Shown here piece after piece: positions 673 through 37,643 of a stretch of 37,643 nucleotides of DNA (position 1 is the stretch's first letter; every line of letters starts with the position of its first letter). A program made the translations under genes and the position numbers. The notes under the pieces are model-generated. The model did no database searches, was not told the origin of the DNA, and worked only from the letters and a program-made list of their open reading frames with translations. Origin of the DNA: a virus; the IMG/VR virus record IMGVR_UViG_3300043958_000061, positions 1 to 37,643 of that record, one strand, 5' to 3'.

Positions 673-942
673 ATGGGCGGAATTGATACGGGCATCATCG
701 TCGCGGCTATCGCGGCAGTAGGAGGAGTCGCGGTGGCGTGGATCAAATGGCGGACCGATAAAGAGTCGAACGCTATCGCCGTCTTGCGGGTCCTCGTGGA
801 AGAACAAGGCGACGAACTGGAGACGCTCAGGAGCCGTGTGGACGCGCTGGAGCGTGAACGGCAGTCCGATCACGAGTATATCCAGATTTTGCGGGATCAT
901 ATTTATAAGCGACTTCCGCCGCCGCCGCCCCCGCACCCATAA
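673..942 (+). CDS. Lysis-cassette membrane protein (N-terminal TM helix, coiled coil, poly-Pro tail)
   Basis: 89 aa with an N-terminal hydrophobic helix (IIVAAIAAVGGVAVAWI), a charged helical region and a C-terminal PPPPPPPHP. It is the last gene before a strong terminator. Confidence 0.55.
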   Translation: MGGIDTGIIVAAIAAVGGVAVAWIKWRTDKESNAIAVLRVLVEEQGDELETLRSRVDALERERQSDHEYIQILRDHIYKRLPPPPPPHP

Positions 943-949
943 AAACTTT

Positions 950-987
950 CCCCGGTCTCACCTGATGGTGGGGCCGGGGAGTTTTTT
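950..987. terminator. Bidirectional intrinsic terminator between the lysis cassette (+) and the leftward accessory operon with its mini-array (-)
   Basis: 13-bp stem CCCCGGTCTCACC / GGTGGGGCCGGGG with loop TGAT. It is followed by a T6 run on + and flanked by A/T runs on -. Confidence 0.8.
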
Positions 988-1073
988 ATACCCCGTCTGC
1001 ACGGGGAACATTCCTGCTGCACCGATATTTGGTTAACGTAATATCGGCTCATCCCCGTCTGCACGGGGAACAT
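983..1073 (-). CRISPR. Cas-less type I-E-like mini-CRISPR array: repeat (1073..1045), 33-nt spacer (1044..1012), 3'-degenerate repeat (1011..983)
   Basis: Minus-strand repeat 1 is ATGTTCCCCGTGCAGACGGGGATGAGCCG and repeat 2 is ATGTTCCCCGTGCAGACGGGGTATAAAAA, with a 62-bp period. Each has a 6-bp stem and 4-nt loop (CCCCGT GCAG ACGGGG) and GTTCCCCG...CGGGGATGAGCCG flanks, as in I-E repeats such as E. coli GAGTTCCCCGCGCCAGCGGGGATAAACCG. Confidence 0.8.
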
Positions 1074-1086
1074 TGACTCGATGGTA

Positions 1087-1710
1087 TCACTCCTCCCTGG
1101 CTTGGGCGCGGGTTTTCATCTGATAGATCGCGGAGCGGTCAATCTTGTAGCGGCGGGCGAGCGTGGTGGCAGATTCGCCATCCGCGAGCGCCTGGAGGAT
1201 CATACGGTCGCGTTTTTCGACGAGGGTAGCGGCGAGTCTGCGGGCGGCTTCTAGCGCTGCCTGGGTGGGGTCGAGGTTGGTGTGCCAGTCGTCGAGGGCG
1301 GCGAGCTCTTTCCGGTAGGAGGCTTGCATGATTTCGGCGGAGTTGGACCCTGGGTCTGTGCCCTTGTATTGGGTGGGGAGTCGGTGGCCGTGGTCGGTGC
1401 GGGCTTCCCATGCGGGGGTGATCTGCCAGGTTCCGAGGTGGTAGGTGGCGCGGTGTGGACGGCCTGAGGGGACGATCCGTTTCGGGTTCCGCTCGTCGGG
1501 CACTCCGGCAGTGACGAGGAGGATTGAGGGTTCTTCTTTCTTGTCGTCGGGGTCGTCAGGTTTTTTGTCTCCGTCGTGGAGGATGTCCCAGACGATGATC
1601 CAGCCGTCTGCCTGGGCGTCGGTGCCGTCTGCGAGCTGGTAGACGTTTTTTACGGGGTAGGCGGTGCCGGGCTGGTAGTCGATGAGGCCGGCGGTGACGG
1701 TGTGCTCCAT
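1087..1710 (-). CDS. Hypothetical protein with C-terminal helix-turn-helix (candidate regulator of the accessory operon)
   Basis: 207 aa. The RBS GAAAGGAA precedes the ATG at 1710. The C-terminal segment LADGESATTLARRYKIDRSAIYQMK looks like a resolvase/sigma-r4-type HTH. I do not recognise the N-terminal domain. Confidence 0.7.
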   Translation of the reverse strand: MEHTVTAGLIDYQPGTAYPVKNVYQLADGTDAQADGWIIVWDILHDGDKKPDDPDDKKEEPSILLVTAGVPDERNPKRIVPSGRPHRATYHLGTWQITPAWEARTDHGHRLPTQYKGTDPGSNSAEIMQASYRKELAALDDWHTNLDPTQAALEAARRLAATLVEKRDRMILQALADGESATTLARRYKIDRSAIYQMKTRAQAREE

Positions 1711-1734: not shown

Positions 1735-2139
1735 TTAGTAGATCTCTTCGGCATGGTCGAGGATCGCGGTGTAGGCGTCGATGCCGACGTGTCCGGTCTC
1801 GTACTGCCAGTCGACTAGGTCGGAGACGATCTGGAAGAAGTGTTCCATGGTCTCGGCGTCGACGAGTTCGGCGGTGGTGGGGAGGGTGAGGCGCTCGCCC
1901 ATCCATGCGTCGCATGGAGTGTCCTCGGACTCGGGGCCGTCGATGCGGACGATGACCGGATCCGAGGCTTCGATCGCCATGACTGAGATGTAGGCGGCGA
2001 GCTCAGGGAGGGTGTCCATGCCAGAGACTCCGTGGCGTACAGCGTCGTCGTCTCCGTCCATGGGGAAGGAGTACTGCTGCTCTGGGTCGAGCAGGTCGCT
2101 GATGTCGCGGGACTTGTCTTGCATCCGGTAGGTTTCCAT
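1735..2139 (-). CDS. Highly acidic hypothetical protein (candidate DNA mimic / anti-defence protein)
   Basis: 134 aa. The RBS GAGGAAAAG precedes the ATG at 2139. By my count it has 31 D/E against 6 K/R. It is the first gene of a two-gene leftward operon, 24 nt upstream of the next CDS. Confidence 0.7.
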   Translation of the reverse strand: METYRMQDKSRDISDLLDPEQQYSFPMDGDDDAVRHGVSGMDTLPELAAYISVMAIEASDPVIVRIDGPESEDTPCDAWMGERLTLPTTAELVDAETMEHFFQIVSDLVDWQYETGHVGIDAYTAILDHAEEIY

Positions 2140-2338: not shown

Positions 2339-3610
2339 TCACGCCTCAAGAGGAGGCTGTGCCGAACCTTCCAGGTCGAGAAGTTTTGCCACCTGCTCGA
2401 GAGCCTTCGCCGTCTGCGCTGCCGTGACCGTCATGTATCCCTCGGACGTCACGATTGACGAATGTCCAAGTATTTGCGTTATCACCACAGGCTCGATATG
2501 CGCGGCCAGGAGAAGCGATGCTGTAGCATTCCTTGCCTCATGGAGCACGTAGTAGGTGTATGTCGATTTTCCTTGCGCGCCAGCTTTCACGCCCTTGTGG
2601 ATGCCCGCAACCTCTTGGAGGTGCTTCCATTGCGCGAGGTCGTGAGATTTGTTTTCGGGGATGCCGGACGCGTCGTGAGGCCACACGAGATTATATGGGG
2701 ATCCGGGCCAATGGGCTTTCCACGCGAGGAGCCTTTCACGCATCGCGGGGATCATCGGGATCGTCCGGTATCCGGCCCGCGATTTCGGCGGCGTGAGAAA
2801 ATATCGTCCGTACAGGCGGCGCACCTGCATGTCTGGCGGGATGGCGAACGCATCTTTTTCACGGTCAGAATACGGGAGTTCTTGCAGCTGCCACCTGATC
2901 GTGATGAGGTTACGCTGAAAATCGACTTGATCCCACGTGAGGCCAAGACACTCCCCCTGACGCATCCCTTGGAGTAATGCGGCGATCCAGCGAGAGCCGT
3001 CTTGGACGCCTTGCTGTGGGTTGCCTTCGATGGACCAGGAGAGGGCCGCGAGTTTTTTCGCGTCCTCTACTGGTATCGCCGTCCGGTCGGACACTGAGGT
3101 TTTGGGGCGCCGCATCGCGATCACTGCGGCAGGGATGGGCTTTCCTTCCATCACCGCGTCCTTGAGGGCTTGCTGGAGGATCCGCTGCGTGTAGGCGATA
3201 AGCGTCGCGCTGCATCCTGCTTTGTCCATGACTGTGCGGACGGTTCGAATGTGGTCCGGGGTGAGGTCTTTTAGTTGCGTGTCACCGATGGTTGGGATCA
3301 CGTATTTTCGTAGTGGTCCGGATTCCGCGGCGTACGTTTTGGGTCGGACGGTTTGGGCACGTTCGGCTAGCCAGGTGTCTATCCAATGTTTGAGGTCCAT
3401 TCCGTGTGTTGGTGCGGCGACGGGGCCTTCGATGGAAACTTCCTGTTGCCGGTCGCGGAGCTTTTCTTGGCAGAGTTTTTTGGTTTTCGCGGTGACGGTG
3501 AGGCGGCGGCGTTTCCCGGACGCGGTGTATCCGGCGTCAAATTGGCCGCGCCAACGTCCGTCTGGAAGTTGGAAGATTGTTCCGGTGCCTTTGTCGCGTC
3601 GTGTCGTCAT
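2339..3610 (-). CDS. int: Tyrosine integrase
   Basis: N-terminus MTTRRDKGTGTIFQLPDGRWRGQF. Catalytic motifs are GMRQGECLGLTW (Arg), LHEARN (H-x-x-R) and LGHSSIVTSEGY (His/Tyr). The track ORF extends to 3679, but the Met at 3610 fits family N-termini. Confidence 0.9.
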   Translation of the reverse strand: MTTRRDKGTGTIFQLPDGRWRGQFDAGYTASGKRRRLTVTAKTKKLCQEKLRDRQQEVSIEGPVAAPTHGMDLKHWIDTWLAERAQTVRPKTYAAESGPLRKYVIPTIGDTQLKDLTPDHIRTVRTVMDKAGCSATLIAYTQRILQQALKDAVMEGKPIPAAVIAMRRPKTSVSDRTAIPVEDAKKLAALSWSIEGNPQQGVQDGSRWIAALLQGMRQGECLGLTWDQVDFQRNLITIRWQLQELPYSDREKDAFAIPPDMQVRRLYGRYFLTPPKSRAGYRTIPMIPAMRERLLAWKAHWPGSPYNLVWPHDASGIPENKSHDLAQWKHLQEVAGIHKGVKAGAQGKSTYTYYVLHEARNATASLLLAAHIEPVVITQILGHSSIVTSEGYMTVTAAQTAKALEQVAKLLDLEGSAQPPLEA

Positions 3611-3711
3611 GTTGGTTAGCCTATCCGGTAGCCTATCTGTGATACGTCTAGGGTATAGCGTAGGGCGGTCTTTCCGCAAGATTTCGCCAAAAAGTAGCGT
3701 TTACTATAGGG

Positions 3712-3766
3712 TATCCTACCGCCTCCTAAGCGGTAGGTCGAAGGTTCGAATCCTTTCGGGGGCACT
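3712..3766 (+). other. attP core candidate: 3' portion of a tRNA-Arg(CCT) gene (anticodon arm, variable loop, T-arm, 3' acceptor strand)
   Basis: ACCGC-CTCCTAA-GCGGT anticodon arm (anticodon CCT), AGGTC, GAAGG-TTCGAAT-CCTTT T-arm, and CGGGGGC-A acceptor plus discriminator. There is no matching 5' acceptor or D-arm upstream. It lies about 100 bp from the int start. Confidence 0.7.
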
Positions 3767-3877
3767 AGCATGAAATGGCGATATACCGCCGATCGGTCCG
3801 ACACGGCAGCTGCTCCGAACAGGTCCTCCAGTGGCGGAAATAGCCAATCGATTAGCCAAAGTGCGTCCCACAAAATG

Positions 3878-3911
3878 AAATAACCCCCAGCCGTGAAGCT
3901 GGGGGTTATTT
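3878..3911. terminator. Strong hairpin / bidirectional terminator
   Basis: AAATAACCCCCAGC-CGTGAA-GCTGGGGGTTATTT, a 14-bp perfect stem flanked by A/T runs on both sides. Confidence 0.7.
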
Positions 3912-3991
3912 CTTTATACGGAGTTAGTTCCTGCGCAGGGAATGTTTGTGGAATGGTTTCTGTCTCCTATGCCTGACCTATCCTTACCTAC

Positions 3992-7159: not shown

Positions 7160-7404
7160 GACAGATTTTGGTGATGCGGTATCCGATTGAGGATCACGAT
7201 TTGACGCCTGCGCAGCTGAAACGCGAGGCACTGATCCGCACGAAAACCACAGCACGGTCCAGAGGGTGGGAAATCCTCGGAACGCAAGAAATAAACCTTT
7301 ACCCAGAACGCCGATGCGTGGAGTGCACGCTCATAGTCGATGCTCCAGGGATTATCACGGAACCTATTTGGGAGGCGACAGATGCATCGGATTCGAGGCG
7401 TTGA
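7156..7404 (+). CDS. Hypothetical protein
   Basis: 82 aa starting MRQILVMRYPIEDHDL. The upstream part of track ORF 7000..7404 overlaps the small membrane ORFs. Confidence 0.55.
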   Translation: MRQILVMRYPIEDHDLTPAQLKREALIRTKTTARSRGWEILGTQEINLYPERRCVECTLIVDAPGIITEPIWEATDASDSRR

Positions 7405-7837
7405 CACGTGGGTGACGCCACTGATGGAAAAGCTGGATTTGCGTGGCGAGGATTGGCGTGACCAGGCGTTGTGTGCACAGTCGGACCCGGAGCTGTTTTT
7501 CCCAGGGAGTAACGGGTCTGTGAAGCCAGCGCTCCGGATCTGTCATGACTGCCCGGTCATGGCCGAGTGCAGGGCGTGGGGAGATGCGCATGAGATCGGT
7601 ACCTATGGCGTCCTGGGTGGTGAGACGGCGTGGCAGCGGATTCGACGCCGCAAAAACGCCCGCGAGCCGCACACAGTCGACACGGACCCTGGGATAGGCG
7701 TGTGCACCTCGTGTGGGGCCAGGCTGCGACCACATTCCGTACCTGTGGCGGAGGCACCTGGGACGAGGCAGGCGTACTCGGGGCACCTCTGCCAATCATG
7801 CTGGAGGCGGGATAGGAGGGCTAAGAAAAATGCCTGA
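7382..7837 (+). CDS. whiB: WhiB-family Fe-S transcription factor with a C-terminal Cys4 extension
   Basis: ALCAQSDPELFFP...ICHDCPVMAECRAWG is the four-Cys WhiB signature. The extra C-terminal CTSCG...CQSCW looks like a zinc ribbon. The RBS GGAGGCGACAG precedes ATG 7382. Confidence 0.8.
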   Translation: MHRIRGVDTWVTPLMEKLDLRGEDWRDQALCAQSDPELFFPGSNGSVKPALRICHDCPVMAECRAWGDAHEIGTYGVLGGETAWQRIRRRKNAREPHTVDTDPGIGVCTSCGARLRPHSVPVAEAPGTRQAYSGHLCQSCWRRDRRAKKNA

Positions 7838-8021: not shown

Positions 8022-8854
8022 GCGAGTTTGAAGTGGGACTTCACTATGACGTCCCAGCAGACATTTACCATAAAGGTCTCGCTGAGCCGCGCCCGCTATC
8101 TTCGACGCTCGCGAAAAACCTCCTGCGCATGCTCCCAGAGGAGGCATTGTGGGAGCTAGAGTGCGGCGAACATAAAGATTCCTACGATTTTGGGACTGCG
8201 GCGCATGAGCTGATCTTGCAAGGCGAACTCAAAACCGCTATCGAACTGCCGTTCGATTCGTACCGATCTAAAGCGGCGCAGGAGGCACGTGATAAGGCGT
8301 ATGCGCAGGGGCTAACGCCGTTCGTGCAGGGAACACTTGACGGCGTGCGGGCGATGGCTGACGTGGTGCGAGGCAAGACTGAAAATGCTGCGCTGCTCAA
8401 CACTGGCGGCTCGGCGGAAGTCTCAGCCCTCGCAGAATGCGACGGGATCATGATGCAGGCGCGTTTCGACTATCTGCGCCTACCAGACGCGGATCATGCG
8501 GGCTTCATCCTCGACCTGAAAACCACGGCGGGGAGTGCGGCGCCACGCGAGTTTATGCGCAACGGCGCAAGTTACGGGTATCACATTCAGGCGGCGATGT
8601 ATCAGACAGTGCTCCAGGCGCTCGGCTATCCACGGCTGCCATTCATATGGCTAGTGGTATCGAAGAAGCCGCCGTATGCGTCAAGCCTGATCCAGGCATC
8701 GCAGGTTGATCTTGAGGTTGGTGAGCTGATGCTAGCCAAAGCTATCACCAGGTGGAAGGCCGTGCAGGGCGGCACCCTCCACCACACAGGTATCACGCAA
8801 TCATTCTTCCCTGCATGGATTCAGTATGAGGCAGAGGAGCTTTCAAATGACTGA
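8018..8854 (+). CDS. PD-(D/E)XK exonuclease (RecE-like partner of RecT)
   Basis: ILDLKTT (D-x-K) and YHIQAAMY motifs. It lies immediately upstream of a RecT gene. The RBS GGAGCAGAAGG precedes ATG 8018. Confidence 0.75.
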   Translation: MSEFEVGLHYDVPADIYHKGLAEPRPLSSTLAKNLLRMLPEEALWELECGEHKDSYDFGTAAHELILQGELKTAIELPFDSYRSKAAQEARDKAYAQGLTPFVQGTLDGVRAMADVVRGKTENAALLNTGGSAEVSALAECDGIMMQARFDYLRLPDADHAGFILDLKTTAGSAAPREFMRNGASYGYHIQAAMYQTVLQALGYPRLPFIWLVVSKKPPYASSLIQASQVDLEVGELMLAKAITRWKAVQGGTLHHTGITQSFFPAWIQYEAEELSND

Positions 8855-10248: not shown

Positions 10249-10574
10249 GCTACACACCGTCTGACGAGGATGTTGAACGCGTCTATATGGAGGCGCACGA
10301 GGAGCTGAACCCATTCGATCCATACGCTGCCACAGATGCCCACGCCGACTTTGCCGCCTGGAAATCGGCGCACGATACCGAGATGGTGCGAGCCACTATC
10401 GAGGCAATCGGGATCCGCGGCAGAAAAGGCAGCGACGTGTGGGACAGGTGGCGAAAATCCGATGCGGAAAAACGCGCCGCCTACCTCGCGCGCCACTTCG
10501 GACTGACTGACAGGCGAGCAAAAACTACGGCTCGCGCACTAGCAATCCTGCTCGGAATGGAGGTGGGAGCATGA
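10245..10574 (+). CDS. Hypothetical protein
   Basis: GTG 10245 follows GGAGGAGTC and overlaps the upstream stop (GTGA). Confidence 0.5.
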   Translation: MSYTPSDEDVERVYMEAHEELNPFDPYAATDAHADFAAWKSAHDTEMVRATIEAIGIRGRKGSDVWDRWRKSDAEKRAAYLARHFGLTDRRAKTTARALAILLGMEVGA

Positions 10575-10756
10575 ACCGAAACAAGCGAACCATTTTCCTC
10601 GTCGTCTCAATACTCCGGGAGGCGATTATACCGATCGTCGCCTACGAGGACGCGTTCGACGCCCAGAGGAAAGCCGCTGAGCTGGATGGGAATCGGCTCG
10701 CGGGAGACAAGACACAGTACATCGTCCACTCGATCGAGCTGGTGGGGAAGAAATGA
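10571..10756 (+). CDS. Hypothetical protein
   Basis: 61 aa with ATGA coupling at both ends. Confidence 0.5.
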   Translation: MNRNKRTIFLVVSILREAIIPIVAYEDAFDAQRKAAELDGNRLAGDKTQYIVHSIELVGKK

Positions 10757-11406
10757 GCGAGCCGTACTACCAAGACGATTACGTGACGCTCTACCACGGG
10801 GACTGCCTGGAGCATCCCGAATGGTGGGTAGGAGCTGACGTGCTGGTAACCGATCCGCCATATGGGATGGCCTATCGGTCCGGTTGGGTACGCGACCGGA
10901 CCGATAGGCCAATCGCTGGCGACAAGAACACGGGCGCGAGAGATTCGGCGTTCAAGATTTGGGGAGACGGCCCGGCGATCCTTTTTGGTCGATGGGATAT
11001 CGACCGACCCGGGAAGCCTCGCCATCGACTGATCTGGTCGAAGGCCCCAGACCCAGGAATGGGAGATCTTTCTTTTCCGTGGGGAAATTCAGACGAAGAG
11101 ATCTACGTCTACGGATCGGGCTGGAAAGGGTCTCGAGGTCCGAACGTCATCACCTGCCCAAAGCCTCCAGTAAACGACCGACCAAATTACCCGACGCCCA
11201 AACCGGTGGGACTCATGGAGGCACTCATCAGTAAGTGCCCACCTGGGACGATCGCGGACCCGTTCGCTGGCTCGGGATCCACTCTCGTCGCGGCGAAGCT
11301 CCTCGGGCGCAAGGCGGTCGGCGTGGAACTCGAAGAGAAATACTGTGAGATCGCGGCGCGACGACTCTCCCAGGAAGTCTTAGACCTCGCGGGGGTGGAG
11401 AAATGA
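10753..11406 (+). CDS. DNA methyltransferase, beta-class N6-adenine/N4-cytosine type (orphan)
   Basis: Motif IV VTDPPYG precedes motif I DPFAGSGSTLVAAKLLGRKAVGVE. There is no adjacent restriction endonuclease. Confidence 0.85.
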   Translation: MSEPYYQDDYVTLYHGDCLEHPEWWVGADVLVTDPPYGMAYRSGWVRDRTDRPIAGDKNTGARDSAFKIWGDGPAILFGRWDIDRPGKPRHRLIWSKAPDPGMGDLSFPWGNSDEEIYVYGSGWKGSRGPNVITCPKPPVNDRPNYPTPKPVGLMEALISKCPPGTIADPFAGSGSTLVAAKLLGRKAVGVELEEKYCEIAARRLSQEVLDLAGVEK

Positions 11407-37126: not shown

Positions 37127-37643
37127 ATGACGGCAGATGAGGTACGCGCGGCTGTGATCGCGACCGCGCGCAGTTTGAAAAGCCAGCTCAAATACTCGAA
37201 TGCGTGGGTGGGTGCTACCGTGGCTCAGCTCAAAGCTCGCGGCGCTGGGGACTGTAGCGATTTCACACAGGCGTGTTTTGGCGCGCATGGCTACACGCTC
37301 TCCGGCATGTCCTATGAGCAGGCGAAAAATGGCGTGGAGGTCGCGTCCTGGCGCGGCTCGCGAGGCGGAGCAAACGCCGCTTTTATTGCAATCCAGCCCA
37401 AGCTCAAGCCTGGGGATCTCGTGTGCATGGCGATCGATTCGTCTCGTCCCGGCGTGATCTCCCACGTAGAAATCTGGATCGGCGACGGCCTCTCGATCGG
37501 TCACGGAGGCCCGGGTTATGGGCCCACCGAACACGCCATCACTGACTGGAATCTTTTACAGAGCGCAACGTACTGGACGGCGCGACGAATCATCACTGAC
37601 GACATTCCCGAGGAGGAAGAAATGAACGACAACCAGGCATATA
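37127..37643 (+). CDS. Endolysin, N-terminal NlpC/P60-type cysteine peptidase domain (continues at 128..378 after removing the 127-bp overlap)
   Basis: ATG 37127 follows AAAGGAGG. The catalytic-Cys motif is GDCSDFTQACF and the His region is ISHVEIWIGDGLSIGHG. There is no stop before the window end, so this ORF is absent from the track. Confidence 0.8.
   Translation, partial: MTADEVRAAVIATARSLKSQLKYSNAWVGATVAQLKARGAGDCSDFTQACFGAHGYTLSGMSYEQAKNGVEVASWRGSRGGANAAFIAIQPKLKPGDLVCMAIDSSRPGVISHVEIWIGDGLSIGHGGPGYGPTEHAITDWNLLQSATYWTARRIITDDIPEEEEMNDNQAY
37517..37643. repeat. Second copy of the 127-bp terminal overlap
   Basis: Identical to 1..127. Confidence 0.9.

Follow-up and report, generated by a model that had tools for sequence, protein, structure and literature searches.

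What could two repeats of the CRISPR type be doing in a phage that encodes no Cas protein? The question is raised by a short segment near the start of the IMG/VR virus record IMGVR_UViG_3300043958_000061, whose 37,643 nucleotides (nt) were analysed as a whole and are termed the window hereafter. On the minus strand, the segment carries two copies of a type I-E-like repeat on either side of one spacer-like segment, termed the guide. An earlier note, made from the sequence alone, had described it as a phage-borne mini-array that yields one CRISPR RNA (crRNA), and direct reading confirmed the coordinates and sequences, the 29 + 33 spacing, the break of the second repeat exactly after the hairpin and the terminator. 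Judging from its anatomy and conservation, the element is very likely a functional crRNA-like gene that uses the type I-E Cas proteins of the host. It might further be a “Cracr”-type crRNA mimic with a regulatory or anti-CRISPR role, loading the host Cascade, a reading that we hold as plausible rather than probable. This reading is favored because conservation of the guide is restricted to the seed, the repeats are non-identical in two related lineages, no protospacer was found and the gene context resembles that of anti-defence loci. Transcription of the element, processing by Cas6e, loading onto Cascade and the target of the RNA are what we infer from these features.

A repeat search of the window revealed exact 22-nt direct repeats at positions 991-1012 and 1053-1074, with a spacing of 62 nt. 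The first repeat (R1) has a hairpin of CCCCGT/GCAG/ACGGGG, and its last 8 nt (1052..1045, ATGAGCCG) form the predicted 5′ handle, whereas in the second repeat (R2) this handle part is replaced by TATAAAAA, and the minus-strand sequence right after R2 is TATAAAAAA (Table 1). Both copies also share one upstream base, an A at positions 1074 and 1012. The 19-nt core of the repeat occurs exactly twice in the 37.6-kb window with up to three mismatches permitted, compared to a mean of 0.03 occurrences in shuffled windows, none of which gave two (0/100). The G+C content of the guide is 39%, against 58% genome-wide, and ranges from 36 to 39% across the guide versions described below.

The element begins 13 nt past the stop codon of a gene encoding a 207-residue protein with a helix-turn-helix (HTH) domain, and lies between convergent lysis genes and a minus-strand block composed of the integrase gene, a 134-residue protein gene and this HTH gene. 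A bidirectional terminator is common to the element and the lysis genes; the minus strand after its stem reads AAAGTTTTT, and it would end the array transcript ~10 nt past R2. At the opposite end, a candidate extended −10 element overlaps the stop codon of the HTH gene and ends 7 nt ahead of R1. Its GTGATAC and final T are retained in two related loci, L007 (TACTAT) and L008 (TACTCT); here and below, L-numbers denote comparison contigs or loci, and W denotes the window. A scan with the sigma-70 consensus detected no two-hexamer promoter near the element. Altogether, the locus is not a canonical CRISPR-Cas locus, as it has no cas genes, two repeat copies and no leader, nor is it a solitary repeat unit, as it possesses two units and a guide.

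The repeat nevertheless has the hallmarks of type I-E, namely a length of ~29 nt, a G+C-rich hairpin of 6-7 bp with a 4-nt loop, and an 8-nt tail of the AT(A/G)ANCCG type. The period also falls within the 61-62 nt of this type, being 62 nt in the window and L007, and 61 nt in L008. Searching the whole window against Rfam gave nothing at the gathering threshold; locally, it gave a sub-threshold match to CRISPR-DR28 on the opposite strand in addition to spurious matches. Since no Rfam family reaches threshold, the assignment rests on comparison with real arrays. In scans of genomes and metagenomes, performed by exact matching only, a single one of 185,579 species-representative genomes contained the 22-nt core TTCCCCGTGCAGACGGGGATGA, namely a metagenome-assembled genome of Deinococcus (L002, JAUNHF010000003.1). 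There the core belongs to an array of 22 repeats with a 61-nt period, the repeat of which (GTTTTCCCCGTGCAGACGGGGATGATCCG) is identical to R1 at 26 of 29 positions, including the 16-nt hairpin and the following ATGA. Moreover, a degenerate scan of metagenomes retrieved seven I-E arrays, either ordinary or in decay, whose repeats are related; none of these arrays has the exact R1 repeat, and their spacers gave no match to the phage. One of them (L015) has the repeat GTGCTCCCCGCACAGGCGGGGATGAGCCC, which shares 23 of 29 positions with R1 and 25 of 29 with R1 of L007, and it is located directly downstream of, and co-oriented with, a Pfam-verified I-E operon of cas3-cse1-cse2-cas7-cas5-cas6e-cas1-cas2.

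Comparison with these two canonical arrays shows the same 29-nt repeat with a CCCCG-N6-CGGGG hairpin and a ATGANCCG tail, the same period of 61-62 nt and the same orientation with respect to transcription. Compared to them, the phage element has two repeats, the second of which is truncated, lacks a leader and cas genes, and starts with ATG instead of the usual G; in addition, the repeats within one element diverge from each other in L007 and L008. The strand is indicated by the co-orientation with the upstream gene, the terminator downstream and the I-E-type 3′ end ...GGGGATGAGCCG. On this comparison, we regard the assignment to the I-E family, already claimed in the earlier note, and the strand as sound.

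That note had also expected the repeat to serve as a direct handle for predicting the host, which was not borne out: the 22-nt core was found solely in the Deinococcus assembly, and the genome and metagenome scans yielded no actinobacterial array with this repeat. Deinococcus is not a plausible host, as it belongs to a phylum different from the actinobacterial range of the phage. The possibility that its contig is mis-binned actinobacterial DNA was rejected, since the encoded ribosome recycling factor is closest to a Thermus protein. The Deinococcus array itself (L002 2381-3706) is an orphan between cdsA and dxr in a conserved block of rpsB-tsf-pyrH-frr-cdsA-dxr; cas genes are absent from the 8 kb examined. 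The five repeats of the array most distal to its leader have an A-to-G change in the hairpin, and the same variant is present in R1 of L007.

The element belongs to a small family of five distinct sequences, and it is found directly behind the HTH gene in every contig carrying that gene. The sequence is the same in the window, L003-L005 and L001/L006. In L007, of which the HTH gene is 94% identical at the nucleotide level, R1 is ATGCTCCCCGTGCAGGCGGGGATGAGCCG, the guide is ATATTACGTTAACCGCCTATCGGTGCAATAAAA and R2 is unchanged. In L008, with an HTH gene of 68% identity, R1 is ATGCTCCCCACACAGGTGGGGGTGAGCCA, the 32-nt guide is AGATTACGTTGGCTATCAGTCGAGAGATCGGC, and R2 is ATGCTCCCCTCGTAGGAGGGG, followed by ATAAAAAA. 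L009/L010, with an HTH gene of 95.5% identity, possess a single hairpin, ATGTTCCCCGTGTAGACGGGG, and then ATAGAAAAA. From the stop codon through the end of R2, a stretch of 99 nt, the window and L006 show 100% identity, whereas identity in the flanks is lower, at 95% for the HTH gene, 89% for the terminator and 73% for the next gene. Across the alignment, both hairpins are fully paired (100% of cells) with four compensatory pair changes, all of which come from L008 and differ between its two hairpins. Such complete pairing was equalled by only one of 500 shuffles and by no slid register. L007 has two mismatches between R1 and R2, and L008 has five. R2 is truncated at the same point, right after GGGG and before an A-rich tract, in the window, L006, L007 and L008. 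Thus three diverged lineages keep one design, composed of a full R1 with handle, a guide of 32-33 nt and an R2 cut after the hairpin, which agrees with the single-crRNA architecture first proposed and recurs in an unrelated family of high-GC viruses. These comparisons indicate that selection acts on the hairpins and the handle as well as on the seed and length of the guide.

The element could instead be non-working, either as a decaying fragment of a host array that the phage acquired or as a pair of hairpins for stabilization or termination whose likeness to I-E repeats is fortuitous, but we consider this very improbable. A match of 26/29 to a real 22-unit array, with an identical 16-nt hairpin and ATGA, is beyond chance. 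In IMG/VR the core is confined to this phage family, hence it is no generic terminator motif. No match to the repeat was found among the cultured phages of INPHARED. Moreover, the element is 100% conserved between flanks of 73-95% identity, the four compensatory changes preserve both hairpins, and the architecture persists in L008 though the neighboring gene is only 68% identical. A non-working element would fit with the failure to find a host array with the same repeat, the sub-threshold scores of the Rfam CRISPR-DR models, and the loss of half of the element in one lineage.

The guide has diverged in a strongly uneven manner. It is identical in L001/L006 and L003-L005. The guide of L007 is identical to that of the window at 26 of 33 positions, with none of the changes in the first 14 nt and seven in the last 19, a distribution with a chance probability of ~0.012 as calculated from the aligned sequences. 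The guide of L008, 32 nt long, has nine of the first ten nucleotides in common with the window and nothing recognizable beyond. The conserved part is therefore the first 10-14 nt on the seed side proximal to the protospacer-adjacent motif (PAM), and the seed reads A[T/G]ATTACGTT. Its complement, AACGTAAT[A/C]T, includes a −10-like TANNNT hexamer, which would be compatible with a promoter as the target. By analogy, conservation of the seed alone is the pattern expected of crRNA-like regulators, which would need just a PAM-proximal match (10.1101/2023.03.10.532045; 10.1101/2024.10.29.618823). As conservation between lineages is confined to these 10-14 nt, the guide probably does not direct DNA cleavage.

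In addition, pairing with the guide is predicted for the terminal four nucleotides of the handle in the window (1012-1052, minus strand), L007 (3885-3925) and L008 (1076-1115). In the window, GCCGAUAUU pairs with AAUAUCGGU, and the guide is a near-palindrome centered on GTTAAC, which goes together with this pairing. In L008, AGCCAA pairs with UUGGCU; here the last base of the handle is changed, and its partner in the guide is changed to match. Upon shuffling of the guides, 1.2-1.5% of the shuffles pair as well with the handle.

These patterns bear on whether the element is an interference mini-array for competition between phages, in which case Cas3, directed by the crRNA in host Cascade, would degrade rival phages or plasmids bearing the protospacer, with superinfection exclusion as the outcome. 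This is unlikely, in our view, yet it deserves serious weight. The canonical crRNA anatomy, with an intact 8-nt handle, a constant guide length of 32-33 nt and a 3′ hairpin, fits such a role; the two repeats of the window are identical over 22 nt, and the low G+C content of the guide is compatible with a foreign origin. Furthermore, the related siphovirus contig L027, whose capsid protein is 50% identical to that of the window, has an I-E-like array with six diverse spacers, which shows that guide arrays do occur among relatives of this phage. However, despite their homology, the W, L007 and L008 guides differ at 7 of 33 positions or at all positions past nucleotide 10, so they cannot share one fully paired target. 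Evolution driven by escape should alter the seed, which is the sole conserved part, and this restriction of conservation to the seed-side 10-14 nt argues against the ordinary interference spacer that the earlier note had considered. The differences between R1 and R2 in L007 and L008 are typical of degenerate crRNA-like genes rather than of copies from a host array.

The earlier note had named phage, plasmid and prophage databases as the place to look for a protospacer. No protospacer was found in IMG/VR (2.9 M contigs) with the exact guide, the 24-base consensus of W and L007, the handle plus seed, or both 17-nt halves; apart from the element itself, the guide matched low-GC viruses by chance. 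BLAST searches of INPHARED and PLSDB gave nothing meaningful, and no full protospacer is present in the window or in the relatives that were fetched. Thus no related or competing virus or plasmid in these collections was found to match the spacer, although the databases cover this phage group so thinly that a missing protospacer is weak evidence. Among individual candidates, a 20-nt PAM-proximal match with AGG in L022 was judged a chance match, as it lies inside a gene of a non-actinobacterial element of 42% G+C and ~0.1 such matches are expected. A 15-nt match of a tail gene in L009 to the distal half of the guide, without a seed match, was set aside as chance or uninformative. A match of L015 to 22 of the 33 guide positions falls inside cse1.

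The lineage of L009/L010 raises another possibility. At the same locus (L009 1392-1440, and L010; JGI 3300044537, 3300044542), it carries a solitary 21-nt hairpin with a C-to-T change in the loop, which looks as though R1 and R2 had recombined with loss of the guide. The phage of L009/L010 has a different lysis cassette, with an Amidase_2 lysin and an r1t-type holin, and an RVT_1 reverse-transcriptase gene among the tail genes, which may represent a diversity-generating retroelement. A solitary hairpin kept at the corresponding position behind the HTH gene amounts to a solitary repeat unit, which would fit a pure decoy of the “Racr” type, in which hairpins and a crRNA-shaped RNA would soak up Cas6e and other Cascade subunits while the guide has no target. 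Racrs of type I-E have been experimentally validated (PMC10651486). The small acidic genes and the HTH gene alongside fit the co-location of racr and acr genes, the target searches are empty, and the predicted hairpin between handle and guide could favor aberrant, non-productive complexes. Nevertheless, a pure decoy appears improbable to us, as it leaves unexplained the conservation of the first 10-14 nt of the guide amid divergence, the constant guide length of 32-33 nt, and the 8-nt handle that is kept in R1 but consistently absent from R2.

Self-directed regulation or addiction in the manner of CreTA, in which the guide would take Cascade to a promoter of the phage itself, such as that of a toxin or late gene, and thereby tie the prophage to Cascade, is highly improbable. 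Host CreA/CreT modules do work in this way (10.1101/2023.03.10.532045), and one site in the genome (26230-26243, plus strand) matches guide positions 1-5 and 7-11 (10/10) at the start of a tail-module gene. This sole site lies inside the coding region, 22 nt into the gene, and is preceded by AGC, which is no known I-E PAM; ~0.07 such sites are expected by chance. Apart from this site and the partial palindrome of the guide itself, nothing in the window matches the first 14 nt of the guide with up to three mismatches. Moreover, no small toxin-like gene with a matching promoter is adjacent to the element, which thus lacks the layout of a CreTA module.

Returning to the Cracr-type mimic, viral crRNA-like regulators of this kind, including I-E arrays and targets in Actinomycetota, have been published (Liu et al.; 10.1101/2024.10.29.618823). 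Similar to Cracrs, the element is located in a cas-less phage, on a mobile element outside CRISPR-Cas loci, and adopts a repeat-guide-repeat architecture that mimics host type I repeats, for which degenerate repeat-like flanks are allowed. The 5′ handle is in the first unit and the 3′ hairpin in the last, and the repeat copies may differ. Cracrs are also often found beside genes of anti-CRISPR proteins, including an HTH-containing protein, and the PAM-proximal part of their guides alone matters. By contrast, what defines a Cracr is a guide that resembles host CreR/CreA, with no fewer than 9 PAM-proximal nt in common, and that also matches a cas or creT promoter beside a PAM (10.1101/2024.10.29.618823). 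The window element is recognized by its anatomy and conservation. Its guide is also full length, at 32-33 nt, whereas the guides of the validated I-E array of Salmonella measure 24 and 21 nt, and its HTH protein belongs to a new and very rare family.

The host counterparts CreR/CreA are degenerate mini-CRISPRs, in which a partial PAM-flanked seed match turns Cascade into a repressor (10.1101/2023.03.10.532045). They resemble the element in having two repeats and one guide, with the 8-nt 5′ handle in the first repeat and the 3′ handle part in the second. Unlike CreR/CreA, which reside inside host cas loci near the target promoter, the window element is phage-borne and has no matching target nearby. 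Racrs, or solitary-repeat RNA anti-CRISPRs, including those of type I-E, are likewise published (Camara-Wilpert et al. 2023, PMC10651486). They are similar to the element as phage-borne mimics of host repeats that need host Cas proteins and lie near candidate anti-defence genes, and L009/L010 carry such a solitary repeat unit. The window element differs in possessing a guide, a second repeat, and a conserved seed and guide length, the last two of which a pure repeat decoy would not need. Viral mini-arrays without cas genes have been shown for archaeal viruses (Medvedeva et al. 2019, PMC6858448; review PMC11656645); these are also cas-less, with one spacer and dependent on host Cas proteins. 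However, published mini-arrays have repeats identical to those of the host and spacers that match related viruses, whereas neither such a host nor such a virus was found here, and the guide evolves in a seed-only-like manner.

We propose the following model for the Cracr-type mimic. The minus strand would be transcribed by read-through from the HTH gene or from a start at the −10-like element before R1, and the transcript would halt at the terminator just past R2. Host Cas6e would then cut after each hairpin, which would yield a 62-nt RNA composed of the 8-nt handle AUGAGCCG, the 33-nt guide and the 21-nt hairpin. This RNA could assemble into a full-size Cascade, and in doing so the mimic would compete with host crRNAs for Cas6e and Cascade. 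The captured Cascade might be parked on a host promoter via a partial PAM-proximal match, the likeliest being the promoter of cas or of a CRISPR-guarding toxin. The RNA may cooperate with the HTH protein and with one or more of the small acidic proteins, the whole forming an anti-defence cassette that would be expressed from the end of the prophage.

Several points weigh against this interpretation. No target of the guide was found, nor an actinobacterial array with the repeat, the best match being that of Deinococcus. The guide has the canonical length of 32-33 nt, compared to 24 and 21 nt in the validated I-E Cracr array (10.1101/2024.10.29.618823), and it is dispensable in the lineage of L009/L010, where the solitary hairpin alone remains. 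The predicted pairing between handle and guide could hinder loading onto Cascade. In addition, the compensatory changes stem from a single diverged lineage of a small family.

A variant of the model replaces the promoter that is repressed. Rather than aiming the guide at cas genes or rival phages, the prophage may use the host Cascade as a programmable repressor of another host promoter, for instance that of a different defence system or a lysogeny gene, which seems quite improbable. The same holds for the accompanying proposal that the HTH protein and the handle-guide pairing jointly form a switch that times the loading of the RNA, to which we assign a similarly slim chance. If true, they would constitute a phage two-component system of a protein and a crRNA mimic that rewires host transcription through the CRISPR machinery in Actinomycetota.

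As mini-arrays, Racrs and Cracrs are already published (PMC6858448, PMC10651486, 10.1101/2024.10.29.618823), the novelty first attributed to the locus was set too high; the element is a well-supported further case of a published concept and no new category. It provides an evolutionarily supported single crRNA-shaped gene without cas in actinophages, where very few such elements have been looked at. Three diverged versions and one that has shrunk to a solitary repeat, each linked to the same rare HTH gene, make up a natural series in which selection on the individual parts of crRNA mimics can be traced. Should the host and the target of the seed be identified, the element would point to a new anti-defence cassette comprising the HTH protein, the acidic 134-residue protein and small GNAT-like proteins, which are candidates for anti-CRISPR (Acr) or anti-CRISPR-associated (Aca) functions against the type I-E systems of Actinomycetota.

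The carrier of the element is a cas-less temperate actinophage, as deduced from its WhiB regulator, its integrase, the actinophage relatives of its terminase and the absence of a Cas match from a complete genome. The ends of the window, 1-127 and 37517-37643, are an exact 127-nt duplicate, so that the window represents a complete, circularly assembled phage genome of ~37.5 kb. A gene encoding an NlpC/P60-type lysin spans the circular junction. The genome also encodes a portal, a capsid and a tape-measure protein, the WhiB regulator (7340-7837), a DNA methylase, an HNH endonuclease, a Bro-N/ANT antirepressor and a tyrosine integrase, and the position of the integrase assigns the element to the lysogeny and accessory region. 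Each of the 1,772 phage records with a terminase relative infects Actinomycetota, with a best identity of ~52%. The integrase has no relative above 58% identity, and its named relatives, at most 45% identical, are from the Actinomycetes Trueperella, Schaalia, Beutenbergiaceae and Nocardioides. INPHARED contains no close cultured relative of the phage. The absence of cas genes was examined by tblastn with the eight Cas proteins of the verified I-E operon, which gave nothing at E<0.02. Both earlier claims, of an actinophage and of a genome without cas genes, are thus supported.

Two independent Logan assemblies (L004 and L005) break 137 nt upstream of the start codon of the integrase (window about 3611-3750). 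This break point may mark attP, which would put the integrase, the 134-residue protein, the HTH protein and the RNA cassette at one end of the prophage. In the gene of an N6/N4 DNA methylase (10753-11406, plus strand), ~100 nt are 78% identical to methylase genes of the mycobacteriophages Rem711 and NM241, and this stretch is the sole nucleotide-level match of the first 12 kb to cultured phages.

Table 1. Positions in the window of the crRNA-like element, its candidate signals and the upstream genes.
Feature	Sequence	Position	Strand	Basis or remark
Bidirectional intrinsic terminator		939..981	both	15-pair stem at 948-981; T runs on either strand
Repeat 2 (R2)	ATGTTCCCCGTGCAGACGGGG	991..1011	-	direct reading; just the 21 nt of the would-be 3′ hairpin handle
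Spacer-like segment (guide), 33 nt	ATATTACGTTAACCAAATATCGGTGCAGCAGGA	1012..1044	-	direct reading
Repeat 1 (R1), full 29 nt	ATGTTCCCCGTGCAGACGGGGATGAGCCG	1045..1073	-	direct reading, repeat statistics
Candidate extended −10 element (TGnTANNNT)	TGATACCAT	1081..1089	-	direct reading; putative promoter role
207-residue protein, β-rich N-terminal domain and C-terminal HTH		1087..1710	-	always immediately upstream of the element
134-residue strongly acidic protein (isoelectric point (pI) 4.05)		1735..2139	-	upstream of the HTH gene in the window; also in L009
Tyrosine integrase		2339..3610	-	upstream of the cassette, same strand

The 207-residue HTH protein is very rare, with three clusters among 5.8 billion proteins and few remote partial relatives among 1.8 billion representatives. 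It has no match in Pfam, PADLOC or the PDB, and a weak match to a PHROG HTH family alone. In the AlphaFold model, the HTH domain is predicted with a predicted local distance difference test (pLDDT) score of 81-88, whereas the remainder is poor (pLDDT 57). Structural similarity search using Foldseek gave no relative of the fold at E<0.5, and the protein has no detectable relation to AcrIF24. Despite a similar size, it was rejected as a homologue of Cas6e on the basis of the Pfam search and the tblastn with the I-E Cas set. We consider it a candidate Aca-like regulator or Acr-Aca fusion.

The gene upstream of it varies. In L007 (2859-3200, plus strand) and L008 (68-397, plus strand), the place of the 134-residue protein is taken by an unrelated acidic protein of 113 and 109 residues, respectively, with a borderline match to GNAT acetyltransferases. 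The surroundings of the cassette also differ in L007, where it follows an HTH_3 repressor-like gene and is oriented divergently from the integrase gene. The order of a variable small acidic gene (pI ~4), the conserved HTH gene and the RNA element is therefore found in two genomic settings. Neither sequence nor fold comparison linked any of the cassette proteins to a known Acr or Aca; the small acidic proteins are candidate anti-defence cargo, and the layout resembles, by analogy, that of acr-aca-racr/cracr loci (PMC10651486; 10.1101/2024.10.29.618823).

I-E-like elements are also present in other contigs. In L017 (Ga0302314_10016745, about 10560-10950), there are six strongly degenerate I-E-like repeats, all different from each other, which form either a decaying array or a multi-unit crRNA-like element. 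The siphovirus contig L027 (IMGVR_UViG_3300045988_020623, 8166-8560, plus strand) carries its I-E-like array of seven repeats and six spacers between the tail genes and the terminase gene, with no cas genes nearby. The repeat ATGTTCCCCGCACCCGCGGGGATGAGCCC has the same unusual ATG start, and the spacers give no match to the window. In a high-GC virus of an unrelated family, L025 (IMGVR_UViG_2974627562_000001, about 3820-3975) and L030 (2974627628_000001, about 610-770) have a two-guide I-E-like element between two terminators, with three non-identical repeat-like units and both guides beginning with TTTG. The final unit stops directly past its hairpin and gives way to a terminator, which is the design seen in the window.

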